Source of the DNA: Spirochaetaceae bacterium
Lineage (GTDB): Bacteria > Spirochaetota > Spirochaetia > DSM-2461
Reading direction: 5' to 3'
Length of the DNA: 64,000 nt
Assembly (NCBI GenBank): GCA_051531975.1
Contig: JAOPTT010000005.1
Coordinates: 320,001-384,000, forward strand
Below the pieces are notes generated by a model that ran no database searches, was not told the DNA's origin, and worked only from the letters and a program-made list of their open reading frames with translations. The position numbers and the translations under genes were made by a program. Shown in pieces: positions 3,130 through 15,327 of this stretch. Positions within the stretch are counted from its first letter, which is position 1. Each line of letters starts with the position of its first letter.

Positions 3130-3828
3130 TTATCCTTGTAGTTCTGTTAATATAGCTTCTACTAATTTTCCTGAATTTTTAGCAGCCACTACTAAAAACT
3201 CTTCAAATGACTGCTTAGACTCTTGCCCAGGTACATCTGAAATCGATCTTATTATTAAAAAAGGTACTTTAGACATAAAGCATACTTGTGCAATTGCTGC
3301 TGCTTCCATCTCTGTTGCCTTCATAGGTGGTAATTTAGATTTGATAGTTTCAACTACTTTGGGATCATGAATAAAAGAGTCTCCAGTAATTATTAAACCA
3401 TCTGTTATATGTATATCTTTAATTTTATCTGCTGCTTTTTTTGCAATTTTAATAAGCCCAGCATCAGGGGTGAAACCTGCTGGCATTTTTGGAAGTTGAC
3501 CATAATCGTAACCAAATAGTGTTACATCCACATCGTGGTAACGTACATCGGTTGATATAATAACATCTCCTACATTTAAATCAGTAGAAAGACCTCCTGC
3601 ACTACCAGTATTTATTACAATGTCTGGAGCAAACTGATCAATTAATATAGTTGTTCCAACAGCTGAAGCTACTTTTCCAATGCCACACTGTAGTAGTACA
3701 ACATCCATTTTATCTAATGTTCCATGGTAAAAGATACAGCTACTTTTTGTAATAGTCTCTATATTGGTCATTTTACTCTTAAGACCTTTTACCTCTTGTT
3801 CCATTGCACCAATTATTCCAACTCTCAT
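3130..3828 (-). CDS. mtnN: 5'-methylthioadenosine/S-adenosylhomocysteine nucleosidase
   Basis: IGAMEQEV, GIGKV, INTGSAGG, EMEAAA and IRSISD motifs; adjacent to luxS. Confidence 0.95.
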   Translation of the reverse strand: MRVGIIGAMEQEVKGLKSKMTNIETITKSSCIFYHGTLDKMDVVLLQCGIGKVASAVGTTILIDQFAPDIVINTGSAGGLSTDLNVGDVIISTDVRYHDVDVTLFGYDYGQLPKMPAGFTPDAGLIKIAKKAADKIKDIHITDGLIITGDSFIHDPKVVETIKSKLPPMKATEMEAAAIAQVCFMSKVPFLIIRSISDVPGQESKQSFEEFLVVAAKNSGKLVEAILTELQG

Positions 3829-4391
3829 TAATTTCCCCTTACTTGTTGTAATATAGCAATTTTTTTACCATTTGTTCTATCTGTACCCTTAAGGTAATCG
3901 TTATAATAGTTAATAATTCCACTAAAAAACAGTTCAAGTTCCGGTTCTTCCTGTTCATTGAACCGACCTAATACATAACTGGAAACCGATCCGTGTATTG
4001 GTCTGGATATTCCAAGTGCTAGTCTATGAAAATCCTGTTTTCCAGTTAATGTTGCGATGGATCTTAAACCGTTATGCCCAGCTAAACCACCGCCATTTTT
4101 TAGTTTAAAGCTTCCAAAAGTCGTCTCTAAGTCGTCATGCACTACTAATATCTCATCTGTATTAATTTTAAAAAATTGCATAGCTTTAACAACAGATTCC
4201 CCGGACTTATTCATAAGAGTCCCAGGTAATATATTTATTATTCCATCGGAATCTTTGTAATATAGAGCATTAAACTTAGACGTGGTTTGTTGGTCATTAT
4301 TTAAACTTTTTTGGAATAACCAACCAATATTATGTCTAGTTCTTTCATACTGTTTGCCCTTGTTGCCTAAAAACACAACCATCTTAATCAT
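3828..4391 (-). CDS. pth: aminoacyl-tRNA hydrolase
   Basis: LGN.G..Y..TRHNIG, MNKSG, VVHDDL and GHNGLRS motifs. Confidence 0.93.
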   Translation of the reverse strand: MIKMVVFLGNKGKQYERTRHNIGWLFQKSLNNDQQTTSKFNALYYKDSDGIINILPGTLMNKSGESVVKAMQFFKINTDEILVVHDDLETTFGSFKLKNGGGLAGHNGLRSIATLTGKQDFHRLALGISRPIHGSVSSYVLGRFNEQEEPELELFFSGIINYYNDYLKGTDRTNGKKIAILQQVRGN

Positions 4392-4395
4392 AAAA

Positions 4396-4490
4396 ACTCC
4401 TTGGATGCATAGGCGAGCAGAATTTAGTTTCGACCAGCCTTGGATGCATAGGCTTTGTCAGAATCAGTGATTCTGATATTTCGACCAGCT
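4396..4490. repeat. two tandem copies of a short element (CCTTGGATGCATAGGC...TTTCGACCAG) in the pth leader
   Basis: CCTTGGATGCATAGGC at 4399 and 4438; TTTCGACCAGC at 4428 and 4479; internal palindrome TCAGAATCA-G-TGATTCTGA at 4458-4476. Confidence 0.85.
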
Positions 4491-4558
4491 TTAAATTAAC
4501 TATAGTGTAATTTAAATAAAATGAATATAATGGCATTAACAAAATCAGAGAGGTTTAA

Positions 4559-5812
4559 ATGGAAGATAGAATCCCAACATCGGTACTTAGTATTGTAGAA
4601 GCAAAACAGGAGAAAGGTGAAAAATTAACTACTTTAATCTGTAGAATGACAGGTACCTTTAAACCTTTCACCGATGTAGTCATATTCCCAGGTGAAAGAA
4701 AGTTCCAAGTTAGGGATATAACCCAGATAGAAGGGGATAAACATTCAGTTAAAGTTAAAGGTATTCCATTTAAAAACTGTACTCCATTTGCAATTATAAC
4801 ACCTTTAGATTTAAAAGTCAGATATAACAAAGTTGCATACTTTATTCCCACAAGTTTTCATAACAAAGATTTCTTCCCTGGAGAGTACAGTGTTACCGGT
4901 GGTATATTCACCGGTTATAGAATGTTTAATAAAGAGAAAAGTTCCGCTAAGGTAAAAAAATTAGGAAATTTATATTGTGTAAACCTACCATTTAAATCCC
5001 CACTAGTTCCTGGAGCAATATATACTTTTGAGAATACAAAAGGTTTTAAAGGTGAAATGGTTCTAGTTTATCCTGGGGACATGAGTAAAAAGAGTGAAAG
5101 TATTATTAGTTCTAGAATTGAAAAATTCAGATCCAGACCAGGTGTTAAAGGTATTTATTCCATTATTTTAAGAACCGATAACTATGTAGAACTGCCAGGA
5201 TTCTTAAAAGATGAAGAATTTGATGGTTCTATAAAAATGGGTGCCACTAGAATTATGGAGCGAGAGTATAACGCTGTAAAAAACAAAATAATTAAACAGA
5301 GTAAAGCTTCTGGTGGTGTTCTATTTAATTCAGTTAAAAAGAGTTGTAATGTGACTCCATCCTTTTTTCACGCAGTATTAGATCAAATAGTAGAAGCTGA
5401 TGACGTATATATAGAAGGTGACTATCTTGTAAATAATGGACCAGATAAAGCTACCTATCTATCACCATTAACTAAAGAGAGTTATAAATTAGTTGTAGAC
5501 GCAGGAATAGATGGTATAAGCCGTAGAACAATAAAAGATTATGGAATGATAAACTGTTTTTATGAAATTAAGAGAATGCGTTTAGCTGTAGTTTTAGATG
5601 ACGACTTGTATTACAGTCAGGAAGCTTTTAAATTAGTTCTTGGAACTATCTTTAAAGGTCGAAATATTGGTGAGCCTTTAACTATACAAGATATTAGAGA
5701 TTCATCTGGATTATCAAGACGGTACATAATTGCTCTATTAAATAGATTAGAAGACGACAACATTATACATCGAGAGGAAAATGATGACAGGGTTATTAAA
5801 ACAATTCCTTAA
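4559..5812 (+). CDS. SelB C-terminal (winged-helix) domain protein lacking a GTPase domain
   Basis: C-terminus TIQDIRDSSGLSRRYIIALLNRLE...R resembles the SelB last winged helix; the N-terminus resembles an EF-Tu domain II barrel; no P-loop visible. Confidence 0.6.
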   Translation: MEDRIPTSVLSIVEAKQEKGEKLTTLICRMTGTFKPFTDVVIFPGERKFQVRDITQIEGDKHSVKVKGIPFKNCTPFAIITPLDLKVRYNKVAYFIPTSFHNKDFFPGEYSVTGGIFTGYRMFNKEKSSAKVKKLGNLYCVNLPFKSPLVPGAIYTFENTKGFKGEMVLVYPGDMSKKSESIISSRIEKFRSRPGVKGIYSIILRTDNYVELPGFLKDEEFDGSIKMGATRIMEREYNAVKNKIIKQSKASGGVLFNSVKKSCNVTPSFFHAVLDQIVEADDVYIEGDYLVNNGPDKATYLSPLTKESYKLVVDAGIDGISRRTIKDYGMINCFYEIKRMRLAVVLDDDLYYSQEAFKLVLGTIFKGRNIGEPLTIQDIRDSSGLSRRYIIALLNRLEDDNIIHREENDDRVIKTIP

Positions 5813-10696: not shown

Positions 10697-13598
10697 AAAA
10701 AAGAAAGCTGTAACTGCAGCAGTTGCTGTTGCCATTTTCTCACTATTTATAGGTAGTGGAGCAATGATACTTAATCGGGTTAAAAGTGATAGAAATGAAA
10801 TTCTAAGTCTAGCAAACGATTATGCAGATAAACAAGAGTATTTAAAAGCTTTAGGTATTTTAGAGGCCTTAGCAGCAACAAATAAAAATAACAAAGAAAT
10901 TGCAGAACTTATTTCTATATATAAAAAGAAACAAGCAGAATTAGAACTGAAAAATATTAAATATAGCAGAGAAAACAGTGAACAACAGTTTATTGATAGG
11001 ATAAAAGACATAGCCAAAGATGTTGAAGATGCATTAGCAAAAAATGAACTTTATGCAGCAGATTTACTTAAAAATGAAATTTTAAAACTTGACCCAACAA
11101 ATACTCTTGCTAAATCCTTAGGATTAAAGATAAATGAGACACGTAAAGAGCAAGATAAACTAAAAGACATAATTAATAATATAATTGATGAAATACAAGA
11201 TGCATTCAAAAAGAACAGATTAAAAGATGCTGAAAACTTAAGTAATGAATTAGTACAACTTGATCCAAATAATCCAATATTAAAAACTATTGAAGACATA
11301 ATTATGCAGAGAACTTTAGATCATGAGAAGATTAAAAAACAGGTAAGTGATTTAGCCCAAAATATATATTCTGTAATAGAGGATTCTACTAAGGACAGTT
11401 TAGACCTATTATCTAAAGAATTACTAAAACTTGACCCTAAAAATCCGCTACCTAAACAGATTAAAAGTGACCAAGAACTTAATAATAATAAGAAGCAGGA
11501 TATTAAAAATAAAACAGATAATTTAGAAGATAACATTGATAGTATTTTTTCTGAAAACTTAATAATTGAAGCTGAAGATGCATTAGATAAAAACAATCTA
11601 ATAAAGGCTGAAGCTTTAATTAACGAGGTTTTGAAAATTGATCCACAAAATGCAGTAGCAAAAGAGTTAAAAATTAGAATTGATAGAAGAAAAGAGTCTA
11701 ATAAAATATTAAAGAAAGCAGAAGAAGCACTAACTGATAATAATATATTAGAAGCTGAAAGGTTAGCTAAGGAAGCTTTAAAAGTTGACCCAGATAACTC
11801 TTTAGTCTCAGATTTTGAAGATATTATAAAACGAAGCAAAGAGTTTCAAGATAAAGTTGAAAGTGCTAAAAAATCTTTTGATGAGGGAAACTTCTCTGAA
11901 GCTGATAAACTAATTAAAGAAGTTTTAAAAGCTGATCCTACAAACTTTACAGCAAAAGATTTAAGAGATAAATTAGAGGATAATAAGAGTGTCGATGAAT
12001 TGCTAAATGACGCAAAGTTAGCATTCGCCCAAGGTGATGAAATAGAAGCTGAAAGAATAATTGATAAAGTTCTAAAACGAGAACCTAATAATACAGAAGC
12101 CAACAAATTAAAAACTAAAATAGAAGAAAAAAAAGAGATAGATAAATTAATACAAGAAGCAACTAGTGCACTAAATAATAATGATATAGAAAAGGCAGAA
12201 GAATTATTAAATAAAGCGTTAGAAATTGATTCAAATAATGCTGATGTCCAAGAGTTAAAAGAAAAAGTAGAAGATGTACTAAAACAATTATCTGATAAAT
12301 ATAGTGATAAATCAAAAGAGTTAATCCAAGAAGCTTCAAAAGTTGATACAACTGATTCTAAAGCAGATGATTTAAAAAAAGAGATTGAAGATAATAAGGA
12401 TCTTAAAGATAAACTTCTTGATCAAGCAGAAACTCCCAAAAAGAGTTATGAAGAGTTAGTATCTATTGCTACGTTGTATCGAGAAAATGGTGATTATTTA
12501 AAAGAATTAGATACAATAGACGATATATTAGAAATTAAACTAACAGCTGAATATTATGTAAAAGCTGGAATAGCAAGTTATAAGGTTACTAAGTATACAA
12601 ATGCTATAGGCTATTTTCAAAAAGCAATCAATCTTGATAATAATTACCCGGAAACATATTATCCTATGGCGCTTACATATGCCCGGTTAGAGGATGATTT
12701 AAAAAGAGAAGAGACTCTTAATAAAGGTATTGAACTAAGACCAAATCATGCATCATCTCAGTATGAATTAGGGCGATTATATACTGATCATGAAGATTAT
12801 GATCGAGCATTAGAACTTTTTATAAAAGCTAAGAGTCTAGATGAATCTAGTGTTAAATTTCAGATGGGAGTTGCTTTAGCTTATTTTAACCTAGAAGATT
12901 ATTCTGAATCTATAGAAATCTATGAAAGTATATTAAGTTTAGATAAAAGTAAAAGCGAAGTTTATTATAATCTAAGTTTAGCAAGAGCTAAAATATCTGA
13001 TTATGACAGTGCTTTAACAGATATAACAAAAGCGATTGAAATAGATCCTGAGCTTGCAAAATATCACTATACTAAAGGTGAGATTTCAGAAGCATTAGGT
13101 GATGAAAATAGTGCAGCTGGTCATTATTTAAATGCCGTAAAACTAGATAATTATTATTATAAACCAATGTTAAATTTAGGTAATATATATGATAGAGTAG
13201 GCCGCTTTGAAGATGCTATCAAACTACTACAATTTGCACTTAAATTAAAACCAAATGATCCTAATATAAAATTTAGCCTTGGAGCGGCATATCTTCATAA
13301 CAAAGACTATGCAGAATCCTTAATTTTATTAGAAGAAGCACATATTAATGATAAAGAATCAGCATTTAAACTATATAATCTATCACTTGCTTATACTGAA
13401 GTTGGAGAGTCTATTAAAGCTGAAGATGGTTTTAAAAGAGTTATAGAACTTGATAATAATTTTATTGATGCTTATTACTATTTAGGTGAACTTTTATTTT
13501 CTATTGATAAAAAAGATGAATCTAGAACCTATTTTCAGAAGGTTCTAGAGTTAAATCCTGACTATATTTTTAAAGATAAAATATCAGAGTATCTTTAG
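10689..13598 (+). CDS. large membrane-anchored TPR protein with internal repeats
   Basis: RBS GAAGGAG before ATG at 10689; N-terminal TM helix; repeated A..AL..N....AE.L...LK.DP.N units; C-terminal TPR array. Confidence 0.85.
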   Translation: MTKKKKAVTAAVAVAIFSLFIGSGAMILNRVKSDRNEILSLANDYADKQEYLKALGILEALAATNKNNKEIAELISIYKKKQAELELKNIKYSRENSEQQFIDRIKDIAKDVEDALAKNELYAADLLKNEILKLDPTNTLAKSLGLKINETRKEQDKLKDIINNIIDEIQDAFKKNRLKDAENLSNELVQLDPNNPILKTIEDIIMQRTLDHEKIKKQVSDLAQNIYSVIEDSTKDSLDLLSKELLKLDPKNPLPKQIKSDQELNNNKKQDIKNKTDNLEDNIDSIFSENLIIEAEDALDKNNLIKAEALINEVLKIDPQNAVAKELKIRIDRRKESNKILKKAEEALTDNNILEAERLAKEALKVDPDNSLVSDFEDIIKRSKEFQDKVESAKKSFDEGNFSEADKLIKEVLKADPTNFTAKDLRDKLEDNKSVDELLNDAKLAFAQGDEIEAERIIDKVLKREPNNTEANKLKTKIEEKKEIDKLIQEATSALNNNDIEKAEELLNKALEIDSNNADVQELKEKVEDVLKQLSDKYSDKSKELIQEASKVDTTDSKADDLKKEIEDNKDLKDKLLDQAETPKKSYEELVSIATLYRENGDYLKELDTIDDILEIKLTAEYYVKAGIASYKVTKYTNAIGYFQKAINLDNNYPETYYPMALTYARLEDDLKREETLNKGIELRPNHASSQYELGRLYTDHEDYDRALELFIKAKSLDESSVKFQMGVALAYFNLEDYSESIEIYESILSLDKSKSEVYYNLSLARAKISDYDSALTDITKAIEIDPELAKYHYTKGEISEALGDENSAAGHYLNAVKLDNYYYKPMLNLGNIYDRVGRFEDAIKLLQFALKLKPNDPNIKFSLGAAYLHNKDYAESLILLEEAHINDKESAFKLYNLSLAYTEVGESIKAEDGFKRVIELDNNFIDAYYYLGELLFSIDKKDESRTYFQKVLELNPDYIFKDKISEYL

Positions 13599-15271
13599 TT
13601 ATCTATCTTAATATGAGAAACCTCTTTAAAATGTGGTCCAAGTTTTGGTAATATATGAGCAACTGTATCAAAGTCTCCTTCAACACCTAAAACAGCATAA
13701 CCAGTATTTCCCCGCTCTCCTAATTGTAGCGTCTCAATATTTACATCCAAAGCTGAAAGTGCAGAGAGTAATATTAAAAGAACCCCGGCACTATTTTTAT
13801 GGCTAGTAATTATCATATGGTCTGTCACTGGGGTATGAATATCAATACCATCAACTTCTAATAAAAACAGTGAACCAGGTGCATTTCTCTCTGTAATTCC
13901 GTGCATCTCTCTAAGTTCAAGAGTATAAAAATTACCCTGACCTGTGCCTTTTGTAAACTCAATTGCCTCTTCAACATCTTTTATATCCCCAGTGAATGTT
14001 AAAAATGCTTCTGCGGTACCATTGCCAGCTGAATTAAGCTCTGCTGTCTCTATATTTATCCCTTCAGACGCTAAGGCGTTCATTAAAATAGTTAATATAC
14101 CTGAATGGTCTCTATGGTTGGAGTAGATACCTAATTTTTTTTCAGAAACTGTTACTGGATGTTTTGGTGCAATAGTTAAAGATCTATCATCCTTTCGAAC
14201 TGTTACACAATCAAAAGTACCACCTTTTACAGATCCAGTAAAATCATCGCATAACGATGTGAAATTTCCTCCAAAAGAGTAATTTGGTATTTTATTTCTC
14301 TGGGTTACACTACGTTTATTTAGTAGTTCTATCGCTTTATTAACAATATCATACATATCTTTTTTATTTTCTGGGTCTTCTAATGGTCTCTTTTCTGGGA
14401 TGAAGTTAGAAAAGCTTAAATAATATTTATACCCAGCTTCTTTTAAATAATCGATTCCCTCTTTATATAATTTACCTAAATTTTCAATATAATGGGTATC
14501 GGTACCTAGTGTTACTGGTATTCCTAAAGCTTTAGCTCTTTTTAGAATATTAATATTTGGGTAGGTTCCACATTTACGTTTAATTCCAGCAAGGTTAACA
14601 TCTAATGCTAAATTATATTCACTCATTTTCTCTAATAATAGACGCATCTTTCTTGCTAATGGGTCATCTGAATTATCTAGATCTAAAAAACATTCCGGTA
14701 GTGGAGAGTAAAGTTTAAGAAGGTCCAAATGCCCTACAACTTGAATTGTTTTCCAAGTAGCATCTATCATTTCTATCATTTCATTAAGATAACCCATCCA
14801 GTATTGGTGTAAACCACCTCGTAATTCAATTAATCGTTTTGTCTCGGTAGGGGAGCCATCGTAGGCAATAGTTTCTGCTGAAAAATGAATTGAACCTATT
14901 ATGAAATCTATACCCTCAGCTTGAAAAATCTTACTTTTATTCCATGCTAAACCGATATCAGAACCTTGCCATTCAAGTTCTATACCGTACTTAATGTCAA
15001 TCTTATATTGGTACTTTTTCTTTAGGGCTTTTATGTTTCTACTGTAGTTAAAATAAGCGTAGTCACCTCTAATAAATTTTATATCTGTATTTCTCTCAGC
15101 ATCGTATCTATAACCTGTAAGTCTAGGTGTATGTATTATAAAAGTAACACTCGGGTGCCCTTTAGTTATAGATTGTTTTATGACACTTTCTAAATCATCT
15201 ATTCCGTGTTTTACATGATCTGTGCCTGTTCCTGTATGTACTCCATGTGTTTCCCATATAAAATTTTCCAT
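13595..15271 (-). CDS. HisJ-family PHP phosphatase fused to two ACT-like domains
   Basis: PHP motifs GIELEW, DFIIGSIH, VVGHLDL, LGTDTH; C-terminal DHSGIL...EGINIE and HKNSAGVL...DVNIE ACT-like motifs. Confidence 0.8.
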   Translation of the reverse strand: MENFIWETHGVHTGTGTDHVKHGIDDLESVIKQSITKGHPSVTFIIHTPRLTGYRYDAERNTDIKFIRGDYAYFNYSRNIKALKKKYQYKIDIKYGIELEWQGSDIGLAWNKSKIFQAEGIDFIIGSIHFSAETIAYDGSPTETKRLIELRGGLHQYWMGYLNEMIEMIDATWKTIQVVGHLDLLKLYSPLPECFLDLDNSDDPLARKMRLLLEKMSEYNLALDVNLAGIKRKCGTYPNINILKRAKALGIPVTLGTDTHYIENLGKLYKEGIDYLKEAGYKYYLSFSNFIPEKRPLEDPENKKDMYDIVNKAIELLNKRSVTQRNKIPNYSFGGNFTSLCDDFTGSVKGGTFDCVTVRKDDRSLTIAPKHPVTVSEKKLGIYSNHRDHSGILTILMNALASEGINIETAELNSAGNGTAEAFLTFTGDIKDVEEAIEFTKGTGQGNFYTLELREMHGITERNAPGSLFLLEVDGIDIHTPVTDHMIITSHKNSAGVLLILLSALSALDVNIETLQLGERGNTGYAVLGVEGDFDTVAHILPKLGPHFKEVSHIKIDN

Positions 15272-15278
15272 ATCTTTG

Positions 15279-15327
15279 ACTCCTTGGTTGCATAGGCGAG
15301 CAGTAATTTTTGATTATGACCATCCTT
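15279..15327. repeat. third, diverged copy of the pth-leader element, in the leader of the HisJ-ACT gene
   Basis: ACTCCTTGGTTGCATAGGCGAGCAG matches 4396-4420 at 24/25 nt, and similarity continues to GACCATCCTT (vs GACCAGCCTT). Confidence 0.85.

Follow-up and report, generated by a model that had tools for sequence, protein, structure and literature searches.

A structured repeat that ends at the ribosome-binding site of pth in a Spirochaetaceae genome raised the question of whether it is a regulatory RNA or a piece of mobile DNA. The initial annotation of the window (the whole 64,000-nucleotide stretch that was analysed) had offered both readings, either an unrecognised cis-regulatory RNA, with SAH or SAM as conceivable ligands, or a small dispersed REP/MITE-like element domesticated as a donor of the ribosome-binding site. 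We found that the leader sequence is a 90-nt insert in which a mobile element of about 42 nt is present as two units arranged head to tail (Table 1). Both tandem units lie where they had been reported, and the hairpin insert described in the second is a 19-nt hairpin (4458–4476) of which no further copy was found in the genome at two or fewer mismatches. The array had been placed at 4396–4490; its true limits are 4401–4490. It had also been described as ending in the ribosome-binding site, and AGGAG does adjoin the start, ending five bases before the ATG (4389–4391), but GGAG (4397–4400) is target DNA and only the A (4401), its last base, belongs to the element. As the unit with the hairpin is a degenerate copy, which has kept its left end and tail and has lost TGCTC, a second stem and the invariant TGGTC/TGCTC internal loop had been overlooked.

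The TACACT proposed as a −10 candidate at about 4505–4510 was present at 4504–4509, but it overlaps a TATAGT and neither was called by a promoter scan; TATAGT is conserved in four of four genus members and TACACT in two of four. A second occurrence had been announced some 11 kb away, and this proved to be a single copy inserted in the Shine-Dalgarno sequence (15280–15284) of a gene for a PHP domain fused to ACT domains (13595–15271, minus strand; 80% identity in genomes G001 and G003). The 16-mer shared by the copies is exact at 4399 and 4438 and has one mismatch at 15282; its chance mean in the 64-kb window was 0.21, and three occurrences were reached in none of 100 shuffles. A DNA contig spanning the pth locus has identical letters, but it probably derives from the source sample and would then not be independent. 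The genes named mtnN and luxS by the initial annotation are presumably these, as the names fit proteins of those families. Divergent from pth lies a gene (4559–5812, plus strand) for a 417-aa protein in which Pfam recognises the SelB winged-helix domain only, with no GTPase domain at E 1e-6; three genus members have the same order.

Table 1. Positions in the window of the pth array, its surroundings and the second copy
Feature	Position	Strand	Remarks
Complete unit, start-codon side	4401..4439	-	39 nt; 60.8 bits, 47.1 bits with the model lacking the Shine-Dalgarno sequence; 3-nt left arm, TGGTC, inner hairpin, TGCTC, 4-nt arm, 8-nt tail, two last bases
Degenerate unit, promoter side	4440..4490	-	51 nt; 19.1 and 20.1 bits
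pth Shine-Dalgarno sequence AGGAG	4397..4401	-	basis: empty orthologue L349 in G001
pth, peptidyl-tRNA hydrolase	3828..4391	-	PF01195, E 1e-47
Overlapping −10 candidates TACACT (4504–4509) and TATAGT (4499–4504)	4499..4509	-	putative; host region, outside the element
Second copy, single 42-nt unit	15284..15325	-	65.8 bits; empty orthologues L536, L537

Structure of the unit and its empty sites

On the mRNA strand a unit opens with three variable bases and TGGTC; a variable hairpin follows, then TGCTC, an arm of four bases, the tail ATGCAWCC and, at the end, two or three last bases. An outer stem is formed between the three left bases and the four-base arm, and the commonest unit length is 42 nt (48 of 102). 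Covariation was found in the inner hairpin, where 84.8% of cells were paired in 22 local units compared with 62.7% after shuffling; for 57 units from many genomes the values were 95.3% and 67.4%, with 110 double changes compared with 25, in counts that treat related genomes as separate although they are not independent and in which inner-stem covariation is inflated because inner-stem pairing was used in the unit filter. The outer stem was not part of that filter, and was fully Watson–Crick in 396 of 455 units and in 147 of 195 among the rarer arm types. Judged from these sequences, both stems are maintained through compensatory change. A genus-level subtype, with the left arm replaced by an extra small hairpin, was seen at L012, L015 and L018 in the source genome (G000) and at L317, L321 and L331 in G001.

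Comparing empty with filled sites revealed how the element lies in its hosts. None of 17 pth loci in other genomes carries it, including those of three genomes of the same genus in which the order selB-pth-mtnN is also found. In G001 (L349) the alignment of the promoter region extends as far as the −10 candidate, after which come six bases, AGGAG and the start. The Shine-Dalgarno sequence is thus present in an empty orthologue and therefore predates the element, whose contribution to it is the first base alone, so that the proposed role of RBS donor does not hold; the alignment indicates that at pth the element entered between A and GGAG and restored the A. The PHP, thrS and serC leaders gave the same pattern with empty orthologues, and aroA orthologues also lack the element, with less clear limits. 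No intact copy was found in 10 orthologous loci of these four genes; serC has a decayed copy in G001 and is empty in G002 and G003. The thrS leader of the source genome (C14, ~176700–176890, minus strand; L006, L546) encodes a Thr-rich 17-codon leader peptide and a terminator, both conserved in G001 and G003 (L547, L548) and likely to be an attenuator, and here two element copies lie between terminator and Shine-Dalgarno sequence.

Sites of other kinds agree with this. Group II intron copies within genome G019 are in part filled and in part empty, with reverse transcriptase frames of 451 and 465 aa; IS91-like genes and one integrase carry 42-nt in-frame inserts, judged against conserved protein motifs; and the source genome has an empty Rpn paralogue. 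Collectively, these alignments showed that the unit inserts whole, that its ends are fixed and that target duplication is not obligatory. A 3-nt target duplication was considered and rejected on the exact empty sites in the introns and IS91-like genes. Some sites mimic a repeat of 2–3 nt (an apparent AGG) because the commonest left end reads GG.

Copies, hosts and the question of regulation

Using a two-block profile, we found 39 units at 26 loci in the source genome (the reversed genome gave three weak matches of at most 16.8 bits, and two of the 39 units score below 18 bits). At 23 loci a start codon follows 6–44 nt downstream on the same strand. As the profile included the Shine-Dalgarno sequence, the count was repeated with a finder lacking it, which gave 30 units at 21 loci (one match in each of two controls), 15 of these loci ending directly at a Shine-Dalgarno sequence and start. 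For background, 20% of 9,534 intergenic AGG and 62% of 1,269 intergenic AGGAG occupy such a position according to a rough gene set. The genes behind the copies are unrelated, including those for RsgA, a GH94 phosphorylase, ThrRS, ArgRS, AroA, SerC, a sulfatase, FucU, ABC permeases and others. Of the three loci with no downstream start, two lie in or between fragments of Rpn (PDDEXK_2) genes, and in G001 a cluster of Rpn genes (C1, 2849000–2883300) holds five of 12 copies. The replication strand gave no informative bias, with 21 of 29 rows, in which some arrays are counted twice, compared with 2,874 of 4,469 genes.

A covariance model matched 17 of 24 genomes of the same family and four of 16 others of the class, and the model lacking the Shine-Dalgarno sequence, under strict filters, three of 140 genomes sampled across the phylum. 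The exact pattern was found in at least 121 stretches of a genome collection, at least 121 of a metagenome collection and 10 viral contigs; plasmid and phage collections gave no match. Carriers among the matches listed were Spirochaetia, many Bacillota (Paenibacillus, Cohnella, Vallitaleaceae and other Clostridia), one Fibrobacterales and one Geobacteraceae genome. In two Bacillota genomes there were 106 and 107 matches, and one of these genomes, from the Clostridia, has arrays of up to seven units at Shine-Dalgarno sites. Over all genomes just 87 of 362 terminal or single copies lie at a Shine-Dalgarno sequence and start. Other sites in relatives are tRNA 5′ ends, rRNA operon spacers, other repeats (in loops as well as stems), further copies of the element itself (self-insertion), group II introns and IS91-like genes, with both orientations in coding sequence. 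Five copies were found in three of 30 IS91-like loci, where they lie inside the transposase or the integrase that partners it, and additional IS91-like genes contain one to three copies apiece.

Several of these hosts showed additional features. The transposase genes of L126 and L514, about 76–84% identical with mainly silent differences, have a near-identical element at the same position, which could be an old insertion or a hot spot. A second, unrelated small hairpin insert occupies one site of two IS91-like transposase genes (L085 ~1560–1615, L514 ~540–590), and another adjoins the element site in the G019 group II intron (L057 1355–1385, L070 1460–1495) and is absent from L054 and L056. 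C-rich/G-rich hairpin repeats (L029, L055, L058, L059, L096, L105 and others) often host the element in their loop, one such locus lying beside a DUF559 gene.

These findings bear on the regulatory readings. A metabolite riboswitch, or a leader specific to pth-mtnN-luxS, would account for a structured 5′ UTR that ends at a Shine-Dalgarno sequence in front of plausible genes; it is very improbable, given that the element is missing from all 17 other pth loci, precedes unrelated targets, is not conserved before orthologous or functionally linked genes, and occurs on either strand in tRNA, rRNA spacers, repeats and coding sequence. The initial annotation had recognised no known riboswitch, and Rfam likewise left the element unmatched in the window, at 20 other loci and at six array loci. 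A regulatory RNA at pth is therefore probably not what the leader represents. Two tests had been proposed with the original claim. Random positions were to indicate a REP/MITE, but copies in the source genome are non-random and the element is nonetheless mobile, so that this test would have misled; as for missing covariation or orthologue conservation, both stems covary, but orthologous leaders lack an intact copy.

An element of mobile origin might also have been domesticated, its Shine-Dalgarno copies being kept as an RNA structure or a protein that binds the symmetric loop tunes translation. The strong placement at Shine-Dalgarno sites in both the source genome and an unrelated Clostridia genome, with its arrays of up to seven, would fit this, as would the predicted opening cost of the pth initiation region, which the array raises from 4.7 to 7.1 kcal/mol. 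Over 18 loci, however, the predicted median cost is essentially unchanged (3.8 with and 3.6 without; higher in 8 of 18), the target genes have no functional theme, the serC copy has decayed in G001, most copies overall lie elsewhere (87 of 362, above), and it is the non-mRNA strand to which the structure is tuned. We consider domestication unlikely. The folding predictions allow a possible local effect on pth and do not indicate a common regulatory role. The REP/MITE-like side of the original proposal, by comparison, is supported.

A probable single-stranded form and the search for its enzyme

The ends of the element suggested how it may move. In 285 single copies, the last base (the second after the tail) pairs with the arm base in 222, compared with 121.2 (s.d. 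7.9) after shuffling, whereas the left neighbour pairs in 110, which is chance level (105.6); in a smaller set the counts were 156 and 72 of 193. Since the last base pairs and the left neighbour does not, full pairing of the outer stem requires the right end to be joined to the left one. This pairing, from which the circle is deduced, points to a dumbbell in which the conserved tail would form one loop. At tandem junctions with two or three spacer bases the last-base rule is kept in 56 of 61, and at those with one spacer base it is kept in 6 and broken in 25 of 31. Neither a circle nor an excision was seen in contigs.

The loops distinguished the two strands. Among 285 distinct hairpins, the 170 triloops on the mRNA strand include 111 TNC and two GNA, placing GNA on the antisense strand, and the 52 tetraloops include 29 TNNC and five GNNA, those of the antisense strand being GNYA in 18 and GNRA in 11. 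There were 41 A–C mismatches compared with 24 G–T, and the antisense circle was the more stable in 216 of 247 under DNA folding parameters. GNA and GNNA loops form extra-stable mini-hairpins in DNA and are far weaker as RNA, according to the accessible part of PMC13037366. These counts, which are read from sequence, showed the folding strand to be the one opposite the mRNA, with loops of DNA type. The same evidence weighs on a route through RNA, in which a small circular or structured RNA would be copied by a reverse transcriptase such as that of group II introns. The repeated copies in group II intron RNA and in reverse transcriptase genes at common sites, the rod-like joined structure and the mostly sense orientation at Shine-Dalgarno and tRNA sites would suit such a route. 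We regard it as quite improbable, in view of the DNA-type antisense loops (GNA triloops, and 18 GNYA against 11 GNRA tetraloops), the two orientations in coding sequence, and the reverse transcriptase content of the carriers, as none was found in G007, G008, G011, G012, G014 and G016 and only a 69-aa fragment in the source genome.

Target positions +1 to +4 read G, G, A and G in 59, 56, 42 and 57 of 102 sites. The first two target bases match the arm in 44 of 102 compared with 28.0 after shuffling, and for the rarer arms in 11 of 43 compared with 4.2, a test from which 124 of 226 sites were dropped for an ambiguous right end. This partial match could stem from nesting or recombination; clearly mismatched insertions exist, and arm–target pairing is therefore not required. 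The element has no fixed GTAG-like guide. In the accessible parts of PMC6006769, PMC13181058 and PMC8266576, HUH single-strand transposition is characterised by folded DNA that is strand-specific, by insertion free of duplication and by an intermediate with joined ends. Taking these results together, we put the probability at roughly 70% that the element, at about 42 nt, is mobile but non-autonomous and moves in the form of folded single-stranded DNA.

We propose that an enzyme supplied in trans, most likely a HUH-type nicking and joining protein as in IS200/IS605 and REP systems, would bind the invariant internal loop and tail, cut one strand at each end, close a small dumbbell circle and transfer it into exposed single-stranded DNA. 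Target choice would be loose, with a lean to the junction of a purine and GGAG and to a partial match with the element's own arm. In the A+T-rich source genome most intergenic AGGAG would be Shine-Dalgarno sites, and copies there would survive because insertion rebuilds the site. The element's own left end would offer a new target, which together with slippage may give rise to tandem arrays; the pth array would be a passenger of this kind.

The search for the enzyme covered the source genome (98% complete), the other carriers and the neighbours of the copies. In the source genome Y1_Tnp, Y2_Tnp and DUF559 were not found, the Y2 search having been run with no positive control, and the sole GIY-YIG match was a 598-aa frame, with no small GIY-YIG gene. 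Over 41 genomes, none of Y1, Y2, Rpn, DUF559 and reverse transcriptase is present in all carriers; PF01797 is absent from G000, G005, G010, G014 and G018, and none of 18 Y1 loci has a copy beside it. The cognate RAYT gene may be lost or unassembled. Neither Pfam searches of neighbouring frames (113 of 152 and 132 of 154) nor clustering of 2,136 and 905 frames revealed a flanking transposase, the recurrent mobile families among the neighbours being disrupted hosts; eight regions with close or inverted copies in G180 and G183 contained ordinary genes. Exposure of single-stranded DNA could explain the accumulation in IS91-like genes and introns, as could tolerance where a gene is dispensable, or the destruction of a helper by its parasite. 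A more specific form of the model is tentative, and on present evidence doubtful: the unit of about 42 nt would be a complete transposable unit, a closed single-stranded DNA dumbbell with the outer stem across its own junction and a 3-nt arm partly steering target choice, moved by an enzyme outside Y1, Y2 and GIY-YIG or by hijacking single-stranded intermediates of other elements.

Relation to known elements and meaning

Comparison with described systems, for which the cited papers were accessible in part, suggested an element that works like a REP or a miniature IS200/IS605 and falls outside both as they are defined. Like REPs and REPINs mobilised by RAYT (TnpA-REP; PMC8266576, PMC6006769, PMC3733652, PMC3337134), it is small, mainly intergenic and clustered, folds as strand-specific single-stranded DNA and has a mismatch zone in its stem; it corresponds to an imperfect strand-specific hairpin of 20–65 nt with a conserved mismatch, and its common ends on the folding strand lie between C and T, as does the cut site of E. 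coli TnpA-REP. It differs in having no GTAG, GTGG or CGTC 0–2 nt from the stem foot (on the folding strand the stem is preceded by GCAT in 270 of 290 units), in moving as a single unit with head-to-tail arrays and not as an inverted doublet, in lying at gene starts where REPs are mostly found behind genes, and in that no RAYT gene flanked by the element was found at the 18 Y1 loci. With IS200/IS605 and IS91 (PMC6006769, PMC13181058) it shares the lack of target duplication, a joined-end single-strand intermediate (here inferred), hairpin recognition and internal bases that partly match the target. Unlike IS200/IS605, it is one hairpin with no gene, not separate left and right subterminal hairpins, its pairing is a straight stem across the junction and not a tetranucleotide guide, and its target is much looser than a fixed tetranucleotide.

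Other small repeats are also found at gene starts, among them Neisseria REP2/CREN, Borrelia IR-A and mycobacterial MIRU, the last being 40–100 bp long with tandem copies and empty and filled sites (PMC3184786). REP2, however, is 120–150 bp long and brings a promoter, RBS and ATG where the element brings one Shine-Dalgarno base, and MIRU has 4-nt direct repeats where the element has no obligatory duplication (PMC3184786). The hairpins (NTS/SRM) of Ssn nucleases are likewise strand-specific single-stranded DNA repeats found across phyla (PMC11893778), but the degenerate SRM pattern published there matches none of 290 element units, and no small GIY-YIG gene was found in the source genome.

Three assignments were rejected: a class II MITE with terminal inverted repeats, since the ends are asymmetric (hairpin, then tail) and there is no obligatory duplication; an IS91 mini-element with oriIS/terIS and a CTTG/GTTC target, since the IS91-like ends of relatives are unlike the element and targets vary; and an attC site, since GTT is neither conserved nor at the cut. 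Rickettsia palindromic elements insert in frame into coding sequence, as does this element (42 nt, 14 codons), which is about one third of their size and has its in-frame cases in mobile-element genes.

The literature search returned no description of the element, with most subscription papers and bioRxiv supplements lying outside it. Six 13-letter consensus words gave no papers, the text of four supplements of PMC3733652 gave no match, and the accessible parts of PMC3733652, PMC12306157, PMC10969869 and PMC3337134 do not describe it. Within the scope of these searches, this mobile DNA hairpin is apparently undescribed.

The dissemination of REPs is termed poorly understood in the accessible part of PMC8266576. 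The present family offers many exact empty and filled sites, fixed ends and natural variants of the arm, it predicts the junction of the intermediate, and it spans two phyla with carriers of more than 100 copies. It also serves as a warning: where a covarying structure ends at a Shine-Dalgarno sequence in front of many genes, it can be a DNA parasite instead of a regulatory RNA. If its enzyme is new, the element would represent a minimal single-strand insertion system, and if the dumbbell reading is true, it would be among the smallest mobile elements, with a scarless and possibly retargetable insertion chemistry.
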